64,000 nt of DNA from Kondoa subrosea. Its lineage: Eukaryota. Shown piece after piece: positions 1,815 through 62,734 of this stretch; the first letter of the stretch is position 1; every line of letters begins with the position of its first letter. Below the pieces are notes generated by a model. That model was not told where the DNA came from. It was given only the letters and a program-made list of their open reading frames with translations, and did no database searches. The position numbers were made by a program, and so were the translations under genes. The stretch covers positions 682,001-746,000 of the forward strand of contig BCIN01000007.1 of the NCBI GenBank assembly GCA_039545335.1. The letters are read 5' to 3'.

Positions 1815-2207
1815 AAGGCGGCATTATATTCAGGGTTCTCGCTTACTTGAGGATCAGATGATGTGATATATCGAGTCAGTGGGGAGCTGCTTGCCAGAAA
1901 ACTGGCTGTCAGCTCGAAGGGAGGATGCAGGAGAAACATTATGCAAGTCAGCGGAAGGCAAACTTGCTAGCGATCTGTAGCCCACGCTCGCTTAGCCGAG
2001 TCGACAGCAATTGTATTGCCACCTTCCTAGCTGTGTGCCACTGCCGACATCTGAGCGCGTTGGATGCTTGCGCTATGATCTACGACTCATCTTTTGAACC
2101 TGCACCGCCAATCTTTCAGACACAAGACCATTTAGTTGACAGGCAGAAGCGACGCAGAGCCGACTGCTCGCAGCGTACACTGATCACCAGCCAAGGCTCA
2201 ACTTCAG

Positions 2208-3333
2208 AAAACCGATAGCTGTCCTTTCCTATCTCTTTCCAATGAACTCATTGAGCATGTTCTGCTCTCTTGCGAAAGAGCGGATCGATACAGATGTCTT
2301 TTCCTCTGCAAACGTATTACCTCTGTCGCAAAAACAAGGCCCTTGCATGAGGAATTGGGACTGGAAACTGCTGAGCAAGCGTATGGAGCTTTCGAAAGTT
2401 TGAAGGCGAATCCGAAGCTGTTTCGGCTGGTCCGGGCAATCGGTTGGACCAAGGGCTGCCCCAGTATCGAGAACAGCCTACATCAAAGTTCGCACATATC
2501 GACAATATCTGCTGTTCTGCTCGATATATTGGATTTCGCGCGCAATATACAAGAGGTCAGCCTGTGTACGTTGCCAATATTCGCACACGAAACTTGGGTC
2601 AAGGCATTGTTGAGCTGCAAGCATTTACAAACTTTCAAGTTTTACCACACCCAGGGCGACCTTTTTGGTTTCGCTATGCTTGATTGGTCCAATGTAGTGA
2701 GAATTTTGGAGGGCAGCACGATTCGCAATCTGGAATATTGGGGCTGCGATGAAGAGTCTGACGACCACTTCGATGCCGAATTGCAACACATGATCACGTT
2801 GGAAAGCCTGCGACTGGATTCTGTCAATATTAATGCGGCACAATTGAATCGATTCCTTGCAAAAGTCAAAGATCTCACCAGACTACATTGTAAATGGCTG
2901 GAATGCATCAGGCCAGGCCTCTTGGTCCAGAGTATCATTCAAAACTGCCCAAGACTACGAACACTCTTTCTCTGTTGCTGCGTACCGCAAGAAGACTTTC
3001 CATCTGAGTATCGCTTCTGGTTCAAGTCATTGCAAGATTTGCGCGTTTTGTGTGTCAACGGCAAAGCATTGCATCCGAGCTCTATTCATTACCTACCTGC
3101 AACACTCGAGCAATTGGAATTGCGAGGCACTGGTATCAGCTTGGGCTATGTTTTTTCGGCCGTCAAGGATTTGGATGAACTTCGATGGATGGATCTGGAC
3201 AAGAATATGGCAAACTCGCAAGAGGAAAGGGATGAAATGAATGTGAGATCTGCTGGACTCGTGCAGGCATGGCTCTAACGTGTTATTCCAGATTTTAGCA
3301 ACTAATCGCGACATTATCCTCGAATGGCTATAG
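2208..3333 (+). CDS. F-box / LRR protein, copy 2 (tandem paralog; start codon or first exon not located)
   Basis: Frame is open from about 2184 and reads CPFLSLSNELIEHVLL. Colinear with copy 1, with the same terminal intron (3243-3291) and a 13-aa last exon ILATNRDIILEWL*. Confidence 0.7.
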
Positions 3334-32900: not shown

Positions 32901-35900
32901 ATGGCCACAACAAGCGACGGACTGAATCCACAAGCAGCTCAATTTCAGCAAACTTCGCAATCGGAAGGGCAAGCTAATGGCAATCGTGGACGAGGCAGAG
33001 GTCGTCCTAGGCAAGCTAAGAAGCCTAAAGTAGCTGTAGAAGCCGAAAATGCAACAGAAGGGCAGACAAATGCAGATTCGTCTACTTTGAGTAATGCCAG
33101 AGCAGGGGCATCAAGAGGTCGAGGAAGGAGAGGCAGAGGTGGTCAAGCTAGAGCTACTAATCTTGGTCCTGTTCCAGCTCAAATAGCTTCAAATGGAGCA
33201 GAAGCAGCGAATCAAGCAAATGACGATCAACCTAGCGAACCTGCTACTCGAGGCAGAGGATCAAGAAGAGCTCGTTTTGGCTCGAGAATCACTAATACGG
33301 CTGAAGGTCGAGCAAATGAAGCAGTATCCAGCGGTTCTTCAGCTCCTTCTATGTCTGTACCGACTGAACACAGCTCATTGCAAGCTCGATTGACGTATGA
33401 TCTGCTACACAACACCATCGAATGCGCTATTTGCATGTCTACAGTTGCCTCGACAGCTCAAATCCATTCTTGTGCTGTGTGCTCTACTATATCGCACCTG
33501 AAATGCATTTCCCAATGGGCTTCGCGATCCATCACCGAGCTTCGAACGCGAAATCAAACAGCAGCAACAGCCAATCCAGTCACTTGGCGTTGTCCTTCGT
33601 GTCAATCATCTTTCCCCGAATCAGATCAACCGAAAACGTACCGCTGTTTCTGTGGCCGTCAAGCGAATCCTAAGCCCGCTTCACTCAAAGGTGGTATCTT
33701 GCCTCATTCTTGTGGCCAATCGTGTGCAAAGGAAAGACCGGCAGGATGCACTCATTCTTGTCCTTCTCAGTGTCATCCTGGTCCTTGTTTGCCCTGCAAA
33801 GTGGTCGTCAGCGTAAAATGCTACTGCGGAAAAGATGAGAAGCAGATGCAATGCGCAACACTTCATCCAGCTCTCCGACCTAGCAATGCAGAAGATGGAA
33901 CCATAGTCGTAACGGAACCTGTTCAAGTAAAGAGTTGTGGAGCTGTTTGTGGAAAATTGTTAGCTTGTGGATTGCATCAATGTCAAGATGTGTGTCATAC
34001 TGGAGATTGTGGGAAATGTGCAATTGTCAGGGAGAAGAATTGCTTCTGTGGACTGACCAAAATCCAAGAAGAGTGTGATGTACAAGAACATCCGTCTGTC
34101 GACCGGACCGAATGCTGTGGTGATGGTACTACAAAGAAATGGACTGGTGAATTTGCTTGCCAAAAGCCATGTCGCTGGTCCGAAAACTTTTGCGCCATGT
34201 CATCTACAGATTACTGATCTTAGTCTTACAGGTCTCACGATTGCGGAAAACACCAGTGTACTCTTTCCTCGCACTGTCATCCTCATACTGTTCTATCTCG
34301 GCCGCCCTGCCCTTATTCACCTAAAGCTATTTCGCATTGCCCTTGCGGTCAAACCCGTCTTGCTACCAATAGGAAGAAATGTACAGATCCAATTCCTCCA
34401 TGCAACAAAACTTGCAACAAACCTCTCTCTTGCTCGCATTTCTGTCAACAGAAATGTCATTCAGGTCTCTGCCCACCTTGCCCTGTATCAGTCACTACTC
34501 CTTGCCGCTGCGGTCACGATAAACGCACGCTTCCCTGTCATAGTGCGCAAGAAGTCGAAGAATTCACTTGTAACAGAATATGTAAAGCGATGCGGCATTG
34601 TGGTCGACACGAATGTGGTCAGAAATGCTGTCCTTTGGCTTTTCAAGAAAGTTTGTTGGCAAAGAAAGGGGCGAAAGCTAGTCTGCTCGATGCTGCTGCG
34701 TTGGAGGATCCAGCTGGTGTTCATTTGTGTCCGTTGATTTGCAACAAACCGCTCAGTTGTGGTATACATTTCTGTGAAAGGAATGACCATCGTATGTCCT
34801 TGTATTGTTTCAGAAGATTATCTGCTCATTTAATTTACAGGTGGCCCTTGCGGAAGATGTTTGGCCAGCAATTTTTCGGAAGTCAGCTGCCATTGCGGCG
34901 GAACAGGTCAGTGGATTGTCAACGTGTTCAGCTTGAACTGATCTCCTTTGCTTTCATGATAGTTCTTATGCCACCTGTGCCTTGCGGAACCCAGATCAAG
35001 TGCGATCTTCCTTGTGCTCGGCCGCCTCTCCCTTGTGGTCATCCAAAAGTGCCTCACGCTTGTCACGAGAACAATGTCAGCTGCCCTCCATGTACGTTCT
35101 TAGTCGAAAAAGAATGTCAATGTCACAAGAGGATTAAGGTGAAGAATGTTCGCTGTGCTCAAGAGAAAGTCAGCTGTGGCACTATCTGTGGAAGGTTAGT
35201 CATAAGTGTCTTCCATGAAAGCTCCTGGATATGAAGAGTGTCTATAATAGTTTACTCGGCTGTGGAGCTCATCAATGTCGCAAGCTGTGTCACAAACCTG
35301 GCGAATGTGAAAAATGTACTCAGCCTTGTGGGAAGCTCAAATCCTTCTGCGGTCATCCACATGAAGCTCCCTGTCATGCTCCGGCTCAATGTCTTCTCGA
35401 GGCACCATGTCTAACCATGGTGGACGTTTCTTGCGCTTGCGGTCATGTCAAGCAGAAAGTACTATGCGGCGCCTGCAATGCGAGACCAAATAGCGCATCG
35501 GACAAAGTTCTCAAGTGTCTCGATTCATGTGCGGTCATCAAAAGGAATGCAGCTCTAGCAGAAGCGCTTGGTTTGGAGCGCGGAACGATAGAGCCTCTCG
35601 CTGTCAAATACGAAGATGATACTCTGGACTATTACTTAACGCACCCAGCGTGGTGTTCAGATGTCGAGAAGACTCTGCAGACTTTCTTACTTGCAGATAA
35701 ACAGACGCATCTTTTTCCGCCAATGAAATGGATTCAGCGAAAGTTCACGCATGAATTAGTGGAATTGTACAGCATGAAAGGCGAATCTCTAGATGCTGAG
35801 CCGCACAGAAGGTCTGTCCCATCATAGTCCCCAGCGTCAAGTACTGAAGTTTGCTGCAACAGTGTGCATGTAACCAAAAGTCGCAATTCCTTTAAGCCAT

Positions 35901-53425: not shown

Positions 53426-55332
53426 TCAGAACTCCGCTGTAAACGGTTCTGCTCCCTTCTTGTTCTGCAGCGCCGTCACTTGACCTTTCCCGTCTTTACC
53501 AACAATGAGGGTAATCTTGACTGATCTCGTTGCCGCTTTGTTGCCTTCTCCTTTAAGCGTAGCATCGACTTTGACTTCCAAATCCACCAGCAACTTTTCC
53601 GCTTTCACTACTGGCGTTCTTATCGGTTCATCATCCTCGCTATCCTCATCGTCTTCGCTATCTTTCGATTTCTTGCCATTGGTCTTCTTCTTGACTGGTT
53701 CATCTACTTGAATCTCATGTTTCCCTTCCCATAAACTGAGAACAACAGTAGCTTCTTTCTCTCCTTCAGGTACTTGAACATCAATCGTCCGTCTTGCAGG
53801 TAAAGGAGAGTTTTCGTAAAGCAAAGGAGCGAATCGACCTTCTTTCGAATCGCCCAATAATAATCCAATAGGTTTGGATAAGGTGAGAGTGGATTTTGCT
53901 ACAGTTTGCCAATCTTTTGGTGAGAGTTGAGCGGAAGAAGGTTTTGTTACTAAGAGGGCTTGCAAAACGCAGCCTTTTGCTATCACTTCGTCTGGGTCGA
54001 GTTCGGAAGTGATGGTAGTTTTTGAGGAGAAGAGGTTTTCTAGACGAGATGTTAAAGCTGGAATGCGAGAAGAGCCGCCAATGAGAACGACCTGGCGATG
54101 ACATTGAGCAAAATATGCATGCAGCGAAAGACTGGACTCACTTCATGAATTTCTGCTGGATCCAAGTTCGCACTCTTGACTGCCTCCATGGCTTTGTCAG
54201 TGATGGATTGGTATACTTTACTGCTAATCAAGTCGAATCTCGTTCTGTTGACAACACCTGAGAAATCCATGCCTTCAGCCAAACTTTCCACTGCGCAGTT
54301 TGCCGATGTTGAAACGCTCAATGTTCTCTTTGATGCTTCTACTTCCAAGAGCAACTTCATCAAAGCTCGGTGGTTTGATTTGTCTAAAGCAACCTTGGTT
54401 TTCTTTGTGAATTCTTTGCTGAAGAATTCGACTAGCCGATCATCGAAAGCTTCTCCACCCAAAGAAGTATCTCTGACTGTACTGAGCGGGACAAGTAAAC
54501 CTTGACGAGCTGCTACGACAGTTGCGGTTGTAGATGAAGCGCCAACGTCAAGAAAAAGGAGGTTTCGGTCTATAGCATTGAATTTAGCTGAAGGAGCTGC
54601 TGTCCATCCATAAGCAACTGCAGCGGCTGCTACATCTGGAATGAGCTGAGATGCTTTGACGCCGGCTTCTTGCGATGCTTTTTGAAGTGCTTCGGATTGA
54701 GCAGAAGAGAAGTCTGAAGGAACTGCAAAGACGCAGGAATCGATTTTGCGACCCAGGAAATCTTTGGCAGAGTTGAAGAGAGTTCGAAGGAATTTGACAG
54801 TAATATCATGTACGGTCAAGACTGTTTCTTGTCCATTGACGATAACGCGATATGCCGGTTGGCCTTGATGATCAATGACTTGTGCAGAGCTGAAGGGCGC
54901 CTTGACGTCTTTTACTTCATCGTAGCTGCGAAACCACTATTAGAAGAAACTATTGCAGTCGACAGATGAAACGAACCTTTTGCCTAACAGATCCCTGAAG
55001 CGCAGGATAGTGTTTGCATTGTTTCTAACGAGCTGCTTCCTGCCTGGAATTCCAATGTACTCTTCTTCGCCTGCAAAGGAGACTGCATTTGCTATTTGTC
55101 TAGCACCATCCTCGTCTGCAACAAGTTGCTAAGACCTTCCCATATGACTATGGATGAGCTCAATCTCAACACACCTGCAATAACGTCAGGAAGACCTTCC
55201 TAGAACGACTATTATGAGCTCCATTTCCACACTTGAAGAAAAATATCGAACCTTGTTGATGACTGCGACTGAAGAGAACGAAGAGCCAAAGTTGATGCCC
55301 AGCACTACTTTTGGATCTTGTATTGAGACCAT
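53426..55332 (-). CDS. SSZ1: Atypical Hsp70 of the ribosome-associated complex
   Basis: GINFG (rather than GIDLG), IADEDGARQI, LGGEAFD..L, CAVESLAEGMDF and a short C-terminal domain. Confidence 0.9.
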
Positions 55333-56077
55333 CCTTCTATTTCTAAAGCGTCTAAGATCTAGTCTATTGGATCAAAAGCAACCTCTGCGAAAATTTCATG
55401 CAGAGCGGAAGTGTGGCAATAAACCACCACGCATTGCGGCAGTTGTGCTCTATCCAGCTGTACAAGTCTCGAATGGTGCTGTGTGTCTGGTCTTGGAATC
55501 TTTTACATATAGTTATCTTCAGTTTGTGATGCTTCTGCTATTCTGGCATTTGCTGCTCCTTTGCTATCCTCACTGTTCTGAGACGGAACCTGTGTCTCAT
55601 GCTCTCGGTTTCTGCTAGCCTGCTTCTTGTGTCAATGCACTGGAAACTGCGGTACTTCCTGTTCCTCAGTAATTTGTTGGAAGTACTTCGCGTTGACCTT
55701 GGAGTCTATCATCTATCACACGTTCAAGCAAAGAATAAGAAGATCTTCGGAGTCCATCCTGGACACACCTTCGTTACCTTGCATTCCCTTCTTTTCAGAT
55801 TTATTCCGAACTGCTTCGTCTATTTCCAGGCAGCAGCATTGTCAGGCGACCGAATTATATTACAGACGTAGAGTTACTGCCTCGTTACTCATCTATATCC
55901 ATTCGCGCGCTGAAAGCAGAGAAAGTGTGATCATACCAATTAGTCTTCCTCTCTCTCTTCTCCTTGTCAGATTGATCTGTTCACGATGAAGGCATGACTA
56001 GAACTCTTATGTCAATTGTCTTTGCTCTGCACTGTTCAGCGAATGCAAAAAAAGCAGGCCACCGGAAGCAAAAATTT

Positions 56078-56219
56078 TGAAAAGAGGGGGATTCGAACCC
56101 CCGCCCGAAGACCGCCGTTTCATCGAAGAAACCTTAAGACGGCGCCTTAGACCACTCTAAATTGGATATGAGTCGTTGAACTTGCAAAATATAGCTAGAA
56201 ACTAACCGGCCATCTTTCC
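56078..56219 (-). tRNA. tRNA-Leu(AAG) with two introns: a 50-nt GT-AG intron at position 13/14 (56206-56157) and a canonical 14-nt intron at 37/38 (56131-56118)
   Basis: Removing both introns gives the 78-nt GGAAAGATGGCCGAGTGGTCTAAGGCGCCGTCTTAAGGCGGCGGTCTTCGGGCGGGGGTTCGAATCCCCCTCTTTTCA, a full cloverleaf with B-box GGTTCGAATCC and a downstream T5 terminator. Confidence 0.88.
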
Positions 56220-56587
56220 GTTTTGCAACGAAGGGACAGCAATCCGTCGTGCGTATATAATAACGTGACCCAAATTTTGTAGAATTTTCCTTAAGTCCGG
56301 GGGCGCGATCATCGGCGCTGACCGAAGGCTCGCTCACTGCTCGCTCTAGAACGCAAGTCGGCTTAGCTGAATACGAAGCCAATCGATGCGAGGATCTCCC
56401 TTGATCGTCTCATCCACAAAGAGGTCAAGAAAGAAAGATTTTATGCATACGGCTCCATAAGATCCTGCAATGAACGAACAGTCTTTCGCTTGGTAGCAAC
56501 TTGCTATCAATTCAGTATATCATGGCATACCATGCCTTAGTAATTCCCCTTTGCGATACTCCTGGATTCCAGACCAATACTTCTCCC

Positions 56588-57054
56588 TTAGTTGTCCGCA
56601 ACAGCCTTTGACAAAGCAGTTGGATCCAAGTAAGCTCTGAAGCTCTGAACCTTTCCTTCTGCCTCGTTGATCTCAATCTTGCACAGGAACCCAGTGACCA
56701 CAGTTTTCTTTTCCGCTCCCTTTTTGCCCTTGACCACATGAGTAACTTCTCCTTGTGCGAAATATTTGTTACCAGCGATATCGATCTTCTGAACATCGTG
56801 CTTGATTGATGCAAGGGAAAGAGCAGCGAACATCTTGTCAAGGAAGTCGACAATGTTCTGACGACCTTTGATTGCTGGAAGTTCTCCGCTTTGGTAAACA
56901 GCATCTGTGTAATGAATGCGTGAGTTCTGACCTTCTCTCTTATAGCTACGTCCTCGTACTGACCTTCCGTTATATAAGGAGCGAAAGAGCCTTTTCCCGA
57001 CAGAATCTGATCGCATGAGGCGAACATAGCCTTGACATCGAAAGTGTTTGCCAT
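56588..57054 (-). CDS. SnoaL/NTF2-like small protein
   Basis: Spliced YITEDAVYQSGELPAIKGRQNI...GKVQSFRAYLDPT, an NTF2-like pattern. Confidence 0.7.
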
Positions 57055-59944: not shown

Positions 59945-62734
59945 ATGCCAACTTCAGTAGACGAATTCGTAGCCTGGCATGAAGCACAGCTAGCTTTGCT
60001 GCAGAAAGAAAGGGAGGCAGAGATCCTAGAAACCTCCTTGCTGTTCTCGAATTGCAGTGCATCGTTACTTGAGAAGAATGGATTAGCTTTGCTTTCGCTT
60101 GGAGTGAGCAACATTTCGGTCGGGCTAGGCGGCAAGAGGTGTGCTGTCTATACATTAGCTTGGTCTTCACGCTCTGAAGCTGGCCTAGTCTGGTTGAACT
60201 CGAACGTCCTGGAGCGCATCACACATCGCCTTTCTTTCCACCTCATCTCTTCCGACCTGGTGATATCGCAGCTATTGCAGAACATACTTCTGCATCTTCT
60301 AAGCCCAAAAAAGCAGCGAAAGACAAAGATTCTACGTCAAAAGATGTAGAGGGAGTTGTCTATAAAGTGTCTGATCAAAAGATAGTCATTGCAATCAAGC
60401 AGAATGATGCTTCTTCTGAAGAGTTGGACTTGCCTGAGCGTTGCAAGGTGTATGTTTCTTTATGTGGATGCTTTCTACTTTCTTTTTTTCGTTGATACCC
60501 TTGTGTTCAGTCTGAAATTGGCTAACGATGCCACCTTCGAGCGGTACATCTTCTTCCCTTTGCTAAGCTCGTCTTGTAGCTGAGTCTGTACTCAGTATGG
60601 ACAAGAATCTTCGCTTTTTACGTAAATCGATTCTCGGCTCACCAGATTCAGAAAGCAGTTCTCCGAACCCTCCTAATCCTCTCGTATCCGTTCTGCTCGG
60701 ATTCAGTGATCCTAATTTTCACCAACCTGTCGTAGACCAGAACATTACGTTCCTCGATGAGAACTTGAACGAGAGTCAGCGAAAAGCAGTGAATTTCGTA
60801 CTGCATGAAACAGAGGAAGTTGGCTTGATTCGTAAGAAAAGGTCCCTCGAGATGTTTCTAAAGTTAAACGTCTTCATAGATGGACCTCCGGGTACGGGGA
60901 AAACGCAAACTCTGGTCGAGGTTATTCGACAATTGGTAAATCAGCAGAAGCGAGTTCTTGTTTGTGGTGCATCGAATTTAGCAGTCGGTCAGCTTCAAGC
61001 TGCCCATGTCTTCTCTTCACCTTAATCCCACTTTTACAGACAATCTGGTCGAACGTCTTACTCTGCATCAAGTTCCGCTCACTCGATTAGGACATCCAGC
61101 TCGAATCTTAGCTAATTTACATTCTGCAACATTGGATTATCAAACTGCTCATTCCAATAGCGGAGAGATAGTTAAAGATATAAAGAAAGAAATCGATCAG
61201 GTCATGTCAGAATTGGCAAAAGGTAAAATCAGAGGGAAGGAGCGGAAAGAGAAATGGAACGAGATCAAAGAACTGCGCAAAGAGTAAGTAGATTGTCCTT
61301 TTGTACTGGATTTGATAAGGCTGATGCCTCGCACAAGATTCCGGAAGCGCGAGAGTAAGGTGGTTGAAGGTGTAGTAAGTCAAGCCAAAGTCATTCTTGC
61401 TACATGTCACGGGTGAGCTGTGCGCCTCTACTATGAATCAAACCTCGAGCTCATCTCCTGTCGGTAAGTGCTGGTGGAAGACAAATCTACAATACCAACT
61501 TTGATGTCGCAATTATCGATGAGGTGAGATCAGATCGTCAGATTAAATGGCAGAGCTGACTTCTTCATGAGGCTGCGCAAGCTCTTGAAGCTGTAGGCTA
61601 TTTCTCACTCGTATCACTGATGCTGACAGAAAGATAGGTTTGCTGGATCCCGATAATGAAGGCAAAGAAACTTATCCTCGTAAGCTCAACATTGATGCAA
61701 TATTCTGACTAATGATGTCTGTAGGCAGGAGATCATCTGCAGCTAAGTCCTACGGTGAAATCAGACGACAAGAAATCGAAGTCTAGCAGTAGTAAGAAGA
61801 AGGCGGAAAAGGCCAAAGCCAAGGACAAGAAGACTACTGCAACCGATGTATCTATTCCCGTGGCTCAGGAGCTCGAAAGTCAAAGTGCAGAGCAGCCCCG
61901 CTTGGAGAGGAAAACACTGAAACCAGCCTCCTCCCTCTCGTACACTCTCTTCGATAGACTACTAGCTCAACATGGGAACAAAATCAAGCGGACTCTAACC
62001 ATTCAATATCGGATGAACGAGAACATCATGAATTTCCCTTCTTCCGCCCTCTATAACAACGAGTTGACAGCTGCTGAAACCGTCAAGACGAGGCTACTGA
62101 CTGACTTACCTGGTGTAAATCAAGATGAAGACTTGTGTAAAGAACCAGTAGTATTCATTGACAGTCAGTCCGCATTTTTTGGCAGGTCAACCAAATTGAT
62201 CCTCTCTCTAGCCGCTGGGACGAGCATGTTTGAAAGATCAGACAACGAAGGTGTTAGTACAGACAGCAAATCAAACGAGAACGAAGCTTCCCTGGTAGTT
62301 CGACATGTACAAACACTGGTAGATGCGGGCTTGCAGGCCTCGAGCATATCTATCATCTCGCCTTATCAAGCTCAAGTGAATCTACTAGCTTCTACTCTAC
62401 GGCCTCGCTTCCCGGAGATGGAAATTGGCTCGGTGGACGGTTTTCAAGGGCGAGAGAACGATGTGGTCATAGTCAGCCTTTGTCGCTCGAATGAAGAAGT
62501 GAGCAATTCCATTGGTAATTCTTTCGTGAGAAGCTTACGAAGGACGAACAGCGGGAAGTCGGGTTTCTGCGAGACAATCGACGTCTAAATGTAGCCATGA
62601 CAAGACCTCGGCGACAGCTCGTCATAGTAGGCGATTCAGCAACAGTCAGCAATGGTTCTGGGTACCTCAAGGACTGGATGGGTTGGCTAGAAGAAAACGC
62701 CGACGTTTCAATGGCAGGTCTGTTGGAAATGTAA
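59945..62734 (+). CDS. HCS1: SF1 Upf1-like helicase IGHMBP2/SMUBP-2
   Basis: GPPGTGKT, CGASNLAV, IIDEAAQ, GDHLQL, QYRMN, SVDGFQGRE and RRLNVAMTR motifs. Confidence 0.93.

Follow-up and report, generated by a model that had tools for sequence, protein, structure and literature searches.

In Schizosaccharomyces pombe and other fungi, introns of the mRNA type interrupt the U6 snRNA genes (Tani and Ohshima 1989, 1991; Canzler et al. 2016, cited in PMC5855946), in agreement with the initial annotation of the locus described here, which gave such introns in a Pol III transcript as background. Spliceosomal introns are also reported from the U1, U2, and U5 snRNA genes of Rhodotorula hasegawae, and they occur in rRNA genes as well (Takahashi 1993, 1996; Bhattacharya 2000, cited in PMC5855946). 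PMC5855946 names U6, U1, U2, U5, and rRNA as noncoding RNAs with spliceosomal introns, tRNA not being among them. Unusually placed introns in tRNA genes have been described from Archaea, Cyanidioschyzon merolae, and nucleomorphs, where they are cut by the splicing endonuclease at a bulge-helix-bulge (BHB) or are only 3 to 24 nt long (PMC4090602, PMC3978253). A paper from 2025 and a review from 2023 treat spliceosomal and tRNA introns as separate systems, and the string "spliceosom" is absent from a review, dated 2026, on the tRNA genes of photosynthetic organisms. The initial annotation knew of no description of a single tRNA requiring both the spliceosome and the tRNA splicing endonuclease (TSEN); consistent with this, neither that combination nor any spliceosomal intron in a tRNA gene was found described in the full-text literature outside subscription journals and bioRxiv supplements.

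We scrutinized a 64,000-nt stretch of DNA (the window) that encodes homologs of SSZ1, a helicase, and NFX1. All three proteins are most like homologs from Microbotryomycetes, Mixia, and Atractiella (~40 to 57% identity), which assigns the window to a basidiomycete of the Pucciniomycotina, the subphylum that includes the red basidiomycete yeast R. hasegawae; no named species close to it was present in the database. Sequence reading together with ARAGORN identified a 142-nt tRNA-Leu(AAG) gene at 56219-56078 on the minus strand, composed of three exons and two inserts. Our preferred reading, which we consider likely, is that the larger insert, located in the D-arm, is a real intron removed by the spliceosome in a working tRNA-Leu(AAG) gene that harbors two kinds of intron. 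The locus resembles the U6 genes in that a spliceosome-type intron resides in a Pol III-read gene (here a predicted polymerase), in that the host is a fungus and the same subphylum is involved, and in that a canonical 5' site, branch, and 3' site are embedded in sequence that is otherwise not conserved. Unlike U6, the host RNA is a tRNA, the A box of the internal promoter is split, and the same gene carries a second, tRNA-type intron. The explanation offered for U6, reverse splicing at the active site, is not directly applicable, since the host RNA here is a tRNA and not a spliceosomal RNA. The introns in U1, U2, and U5 of R. hasegawae and those in rRNA genes likewise represent spliceosomal introns in noncoding RNA genes; their hosts, however, are transcribed by Pol II or Pol I and do not include a tRNA. 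The ectopic tRNA introns of C. merolae, cryptophyte and chlorarachniophyte nucleomorphs, and Archaea share with the present gene the D-arm location, the co-occurrence with a 37/38 intron, and the failure of scanners to detect them. In contrast to those introns, which are short (3 to 24 nt in the Guillardia nucleomorph) and/or have a BHB, the present insert is 50 nt long, lacks a BHB, and has GT, a branch motif, and YAG. What appears to be new is the placement of a putative mRNA-type intron, of the sort known from Pol III genes, in a tRNA, paired with a TSEN intron.

The features of the locus are given below; splice-site, branch-site, T-run, and TATATA assignments are read from the sequence, and the second copy is a paralog in the same genome that is described further on.

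56254..56259, minus strand: TATATA, a possible TFIIIB/TBP site, -40 to -35 relative to the mature 5' end.
56207..56219, minus strand: tRNA-Leu exon 1, 13 nt, tRNA positions 1 to 13, part of the cloverleaf found by ARAGORN after excision; contains the acceptor 5' strand, U8, G9, the D-stem 5' strand, and the 5' half of the A box.
56157..56206, minus strand: D-arm insert, 50 nt, a candidate GT-AG intron of the spliceosomal type that separates tRNA positions 13 and 14.
56201..56206, minus strand: GTTAGT, a hexamer resembling a 5' splice site.
56168..56173, minus strand: ACTCAT, resembling a branch site, with the candidate branch A at 56169, 12 nt from the 3' end of the insert.
56157..56159, minus strand: TAG, the putative 3' splice site; CAG in the second copy, YAG being retained.
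56132..56156, minus strand: tRNA-Leu exon 2, 25 nt, in the ARAGORN cloverleaf, 0 differences in the second copy; contains the D-loop (with the 3' half of the A box), the D-stem 3' strand, the anticodon stem 5' strand, the anticodon AAG, and G37.
56118..56131, minus strand: canonical tRNA intron at 37/38, 14 nt; five differences in the second copy, all internal.
56078..56117, minus strand: tRNA-Leu exon 3, 40 nt, in the ARAGORN cloverleaf, 0 differences in the second copy; contains position 38, the anticodon stem 3' strand, a 9-nt variable region, the T-arm, the acceptor 3' strand, and the discriminator A.
56089..56099, minus strand: B box GGTTCGAATCC in the T-arm, intact.
56070..56074, minus strand: T5 run resembling a Pol III terminator, 3 nt past the discriminator.
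56053-56047, minus strand: T7 run behind the T5 run.

Since exon 1 and the D-arm insert both end in G, the boundary of the insert can slide by one base, and GT...AG is one of two equivalent placements. Following excision, ARAGORN recovers a cloverleaf with the invariant tRNA positions, a Leu-type D-loop, and the discriminator A73. The variable region (56109-56101, minus strand) has only 9 nt, short for a cytoplasmic tRNA-Leu, is the same in both genomic copies, and could form a hairpin of one or two pairs around UUCG. The insert splits the A box (positions 8 to 19) into halves that lie 50 nt apart, and the B box (positions 52 to 62) is intact. TATA elements at 35 to 40 nt upstream aid the placement of TFIIIB in some fungi. 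The gene is flanked by a minus-strand gene ending near 56588 and by SSZ1, also on the minus strand, starting near 55330. A protein-coding reading of the locus was rejected, the overlapping 91-aa ORF and three neighboring ORFs having no Pfam family. Elsewhere in the window, the plus-strand ORFs 592-1752 and 2184-3278 encode related proteins, a tandem pair of paralogs with a common N-terminal motif (FLSLSNE.IEH.LL) and a similar leucine-rich layout.

ARAGORN returned no tRNA genes in the whole 64,000-nt window, with its intron option on or off, and no tRNA in the native 301-nt stretch of the locus. When the 50-nt insert was removed, a tRNA-Leu with an anticodon-loop intron was called, and removal of both inserts gave a 78-nt tRNA-Leu(aag). 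Rfam produced no matches at gathering score across the window, and in E-value mode, applied to the locus alone, it matched the tRNA clan only in part, over the T-arm. Left to itself, ARAGORN parsed the small intron as 13 nt at 35/36 (anticodon tag), a parse that would place two of the five differences of the second copy in exons. We prefer the 37/38 parse (anticodon AAG) because it is the sole parse with all five of these differences inside the intron, and because it keeps G26, as in the metagenome locus L001 (see below). The 14-nt intron so defined is of normal geometry, with 3/4 and 3/3 pairs scored, adjoining the anticodon stem and lying one base 3' of the anticodon. The pieces quoted in the initial annotation for a tRNA-Leu(AAG) split in its D-arm were thus all located at 56219-56078, in the sequence as quoted. 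Its further statements, that exact GT-AG excision restores the cloverleaf, that a separate 14-nt intron sits at 37/38, and that standard scanners miss the gene, agree with the ARAGORN calls, the manual excision, and the second-copy differences, the last statement being true for ARAGORN and the Rfam models, the ones run.

For comparison with local mRNA introns, proteins homologous to SSZ1, the helicase, and NFX1 were aligned to the window with a spliced aligner that demanded only GT..AG. This gave 15 introns, each placed identically by every homolog used (SSZ1, 4/4; helicase, 3/3; NFX1, 3/3), that ranged from 45 to 61 nt (median 52, n = 15). A G at +5 was present in all 15 and a YAG end in 12/15; a CTNAY motif with its A 8 to 30 nt from the end was found in eight, and hence we treat it as a loose marker, and a T5 run within two. 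GTTAGT starts one of the 15 (the NFX1 intron at 35195-35250), two SSZ1 introns begin GTTCGT and GTTCGA, and CTCAT also occurs in the local mRNA introns at 55251-55200, 55174-55116, 61413-61468, and 34792-34840. The D-arm insert is in line with this set on every count, being 50 nt long, starting with GTTAGT, containing CTCAT with its A at 12 nt, ending in TAG, and lacking a T5 run. Across both strands of the window, only 8,106 of the 2,174,198 stretches of 45 to 61 nt are GT..AG, and 218 of these (1.0e-4 of all) also have the +5 G, the -3 Y, and a CTNAY 8 to 30 nt from the end. The resemblance in length and signals to the introns of neighboring mRNAs, already proposed in the initial annotation, is therefore borne out against a homology-supported set, with approximately one in 10,000 random stretches fitting as well. 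A copy of a mobile element or introner was rejected for the window, where the D-arm insert matches only itself.

Two further observations concern the mRNA introns themselves. Three helicase introns on the plus strand (61284-61337, 61413-61468, and 61524-61571) end in AAG, AAG, and GAG, respectively, and not in YAG; all three were placed alike by 3/3 homologs, and they represent either tolerated acceptors or an aligner placement that is a few bases off. In SSZ1, at 55232-55108 of the window (minus strand), intron 2 can be aligned over ~60 nt to the 3' part of intron 1 plus the 25-nt exon 2, an alignment that takes in GAGCTCAT and GGAAGGTCTT. Intron 2 hence seems to have arisen by tandem duplication in place and may exemplify the gain of an intron through duplication.

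Contigs from two DNA runs of one sample, possibly the source of the assembly, were compared with the locus at 80% likeness. These contigs break at two shared 30-mers, 56077-56106 and 56129-56158, and then enter other flanks on both sides. One 206-nt contig spans 56129-56229 gap-free with 16 differences, of which the 14 listed all fall at 56159-56199, within the D-arm insert; the other two, situated in the terminal 30 nt of the alignment (somewhere in 56200-56229, which comprises 7 bases of intron, 13 of exon, and 10 of leader), are unlisted for that reason. Between the shared 30-mers, an 82-nt piece of run X2 shows five differences, all inside the 14-nt intron. All pieces of this second copy occur at a depth of ~50 in run X1, the same as the flanking long contigs, and from this depth and the different flanks we read the second copy as one further single-copy gene at another locus. 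Among the readable positions, which in the second copy exclude exon 1 and the 5' splice site, those that differ from the window gene number 19 of 57 in the introns and 0 of 65 in the exons (Fisher p = 8e-8), and exon decay at the intron rate, as in a pseudogene, was not seen. Within the D-arm insert, CTCAT and the terminal AG are untouched (0/7 versus 14/36 positions differing, one-sided p = 0.048), positions on both sides of CTCAT differ, and TAG is replaced by CAG. A T5 run is found right behind the shared 3' end of the second copy, at a loose contig end. No TATA occurs in the 30 upstream letters shown for this copy, hence the TATATA of the window gene is judged not conserved. No joint skipping the D-arm insert was found in the runs at 80% likeness, a result from filtered records that is uninformative on intron-less copies. 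At the level of the DNA, the comparison of the two paralogs shows the signature of purifying selection that acts on exons and spares introns. This pattern of identical exons and drifted introns fits a working, spliced gene under purifying selection and is one that a decaying pseudogene would not show.

To extend the comparison to other organisms, metagenomes were scanned with a pattern consisting of the exon bases on either side of 13/14, a gap of 38 to 68, and a terminal AG, with GT not required. A single locus was matched, L001, on a 79-kb contig; the same pattern gave no matches in a prokaryotic genome collection and none in viral contigs. ARAGORN finds nothing in the native sequence of L001, and after removal of a 51-nt insert it calls a tRNA-Leu(cag) with a 17-nt anticodon-loop intron. 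The L001 insert occupies the same 13/14 position, starts with GTTCGT, and ends in CAG; the A of its CTAAC lies 10 nt before the end, and none of its T runs exceeds 3, T5 and T8 runs being found behind the gene. Its tRNA differs from that of the window in the acceptor stem, anticodon stem, variable arm, and T-stem, with an identical D-arm, and its variable arm is normal, with a 4-bp stem. Beyond the splice signals, the two D-arm inserts have little in common. No telling ORF was found in 871 nt of the contig. As far as the DNA can tell, L001 shows that a D-arm insert of the GT...AG form recurs at the same position in another organism and in another isoacceptor.

Three other explanations were weighed against the preferred reading. 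That the D-arm insert is a noncanonical tRNA intron cut by the tRNA splicing endonuclease seems to us very unlikely. Noncanonical introns in the D-arm of eukaryotic tRNAs are known from nucleomorphs (3 to 24 nt) and C. merolae, some with a mechanism still unexplained (PMC4090602, PMC3978253), and the present gene already needs TSEN for its 37/38 intron. BHB-like cleavage, which the initial annotation had set against its own reading, was nevertheless not indicated, since neither a BHB nor a relaxed form of one was found at the junctions of the D-arm insert in the window gene (central helix 2/4, both G-U; outer helices 1/3 and 1/3) or in L001 (central helix 0/4; outer helices 1/3 and 0/3). In the second copy, four of the five insert positions 44 to 48 are changed (44, 45, 46, and 48) opposite unchanged exon partners, and three of them (45, 46, and 48) are among the four positions, 45 to 48, of the would-be BHB central helix. 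The insert region of the folded pre-tRNA is without outstanding structure (z = -1.08), and the features that are conserved, GTNNGT, CTNAY, and YAG, are spliceosomal. Moreover, yeast Sen54 probably contacts the D-arm as well as the acceptor stem, according to PMC3978253, and the insert disrupts the D-arm.

It is also unlikely, in our view, that the copies are dead, an insertion having broken a tRNA-Leu gene that was later duplicated without giving a functional tRNA, with the GT-AG look a coincidence. Neutral decay would have reached the exons, in which 0/65 positions differ against 19/57 in the introns, and exons of 13 to 40 nt would presumably be poor substrates for gene conversion confined to exons. 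All three copies retain every invariant tRNA position, the B box, and the T5 terminators, the architecture recurs with its splice signals in another organism and isoacceptor, and the chance of the splice-signal set is ~1e-4 per placement. These points stand against the split A box, the short variable region, the possibility of intron-less copies elsewhere in the genome, and the custom, stated in PMC4090602, of usually taking D- or T-arm insertions in eukaryotic tRNA genes as pseudogenes. A third alternative keeps the spliceosome and changes the polymerase, the gene being read by Pol II, for instance within a read-through or noncoding transcript from which RNase P and RNase Z release the tRNA. 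In its favor are the split A box, the location of the gene between two neighbors that share its strand (~370 nt past the upstream stop and ~750 nt before the SSZ1 start), and the existence of tRNAs or tRNA-like RNAs made by Pol II (PMC2943599, PMC6152437). Against this, a T5 run follows directly behind the gene in all three copies despite their different flanks, the B box is intact, and it is established from S. pombe U6 that the spliceosome can take an intron out of a Pol III transcript (PMC5855946); the occurrence of T5 within 0/3 D-arm inserts versus 2/15 local mRNA introns points weakly in the same direction. We regard a Pol II origin of the transcript as a minor alternative and as very unlikely.

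Under the preferred reading, removal of the D-arm insert by the spliceosome, Pol III would transcribe the gene from ~10 nt upstream of its 5' end to the T5 run. Pol III is the most likely polymerase given the intact B box, the T5 terminator directly behind the gene, and the lack of a T5 run in either intron. The spliceosome would then remove the 50-nt insert, with U1 pairing at CCG/GUUAGU, the ACUCAU adenosine 12 nt from the end acting as the branch point, and UAG/A serving as the 3' site. The D-arm and the L-shaped body would form only after this step, whereupon TSEN and tRNA ligase would remove the 14-nt intron at 37/38. Splicing as such, the spliceosome as its agent, the sequence of the two removals, and the polymerase are all inferred. 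Since the D-arm insert looks like the ordinary mRNA introns of the same fungus, tRNA-Leu(AAG) probably depends on two machineries, that of mRNA splicing and that of tRNA splicing. Among the points that count against this reading are the split A box, which would leave the correct setting of the start site by TFIIIC/TFIIIB unexplained; the 9-nt variable region, short for a Leu tRNA; the CTCAT motif, which differs from the textbook CTRAY branch motif; and the single match from another organism.

If the preferred reading is true, spliceosomal splicing of Pol III transcripts would reach beyond U6, and the gene would provide a natural split-A-box case for studying Pol III promoter logic as well as a test for ideas on the entry of introns into noncoding RNAs. 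It would also expose a blind spot of tRNA annotation, ARAGORN and Rfam both missing the gene. On a broader and more tentative reading, about which we are close to evenly divided, the Pucciniomycotina, or part of them, may make at least two Leu isoacceptors only from genes that combine a spliceosomal D-arm intron with a TSEN intron. Were this lineage-wide reading true, the isoacceptors would seem "missing" in published annotations, because scanners miss such genes, and the translation of CUN codons would require spliceosomal processing of Pol III transcripts with a split A box.
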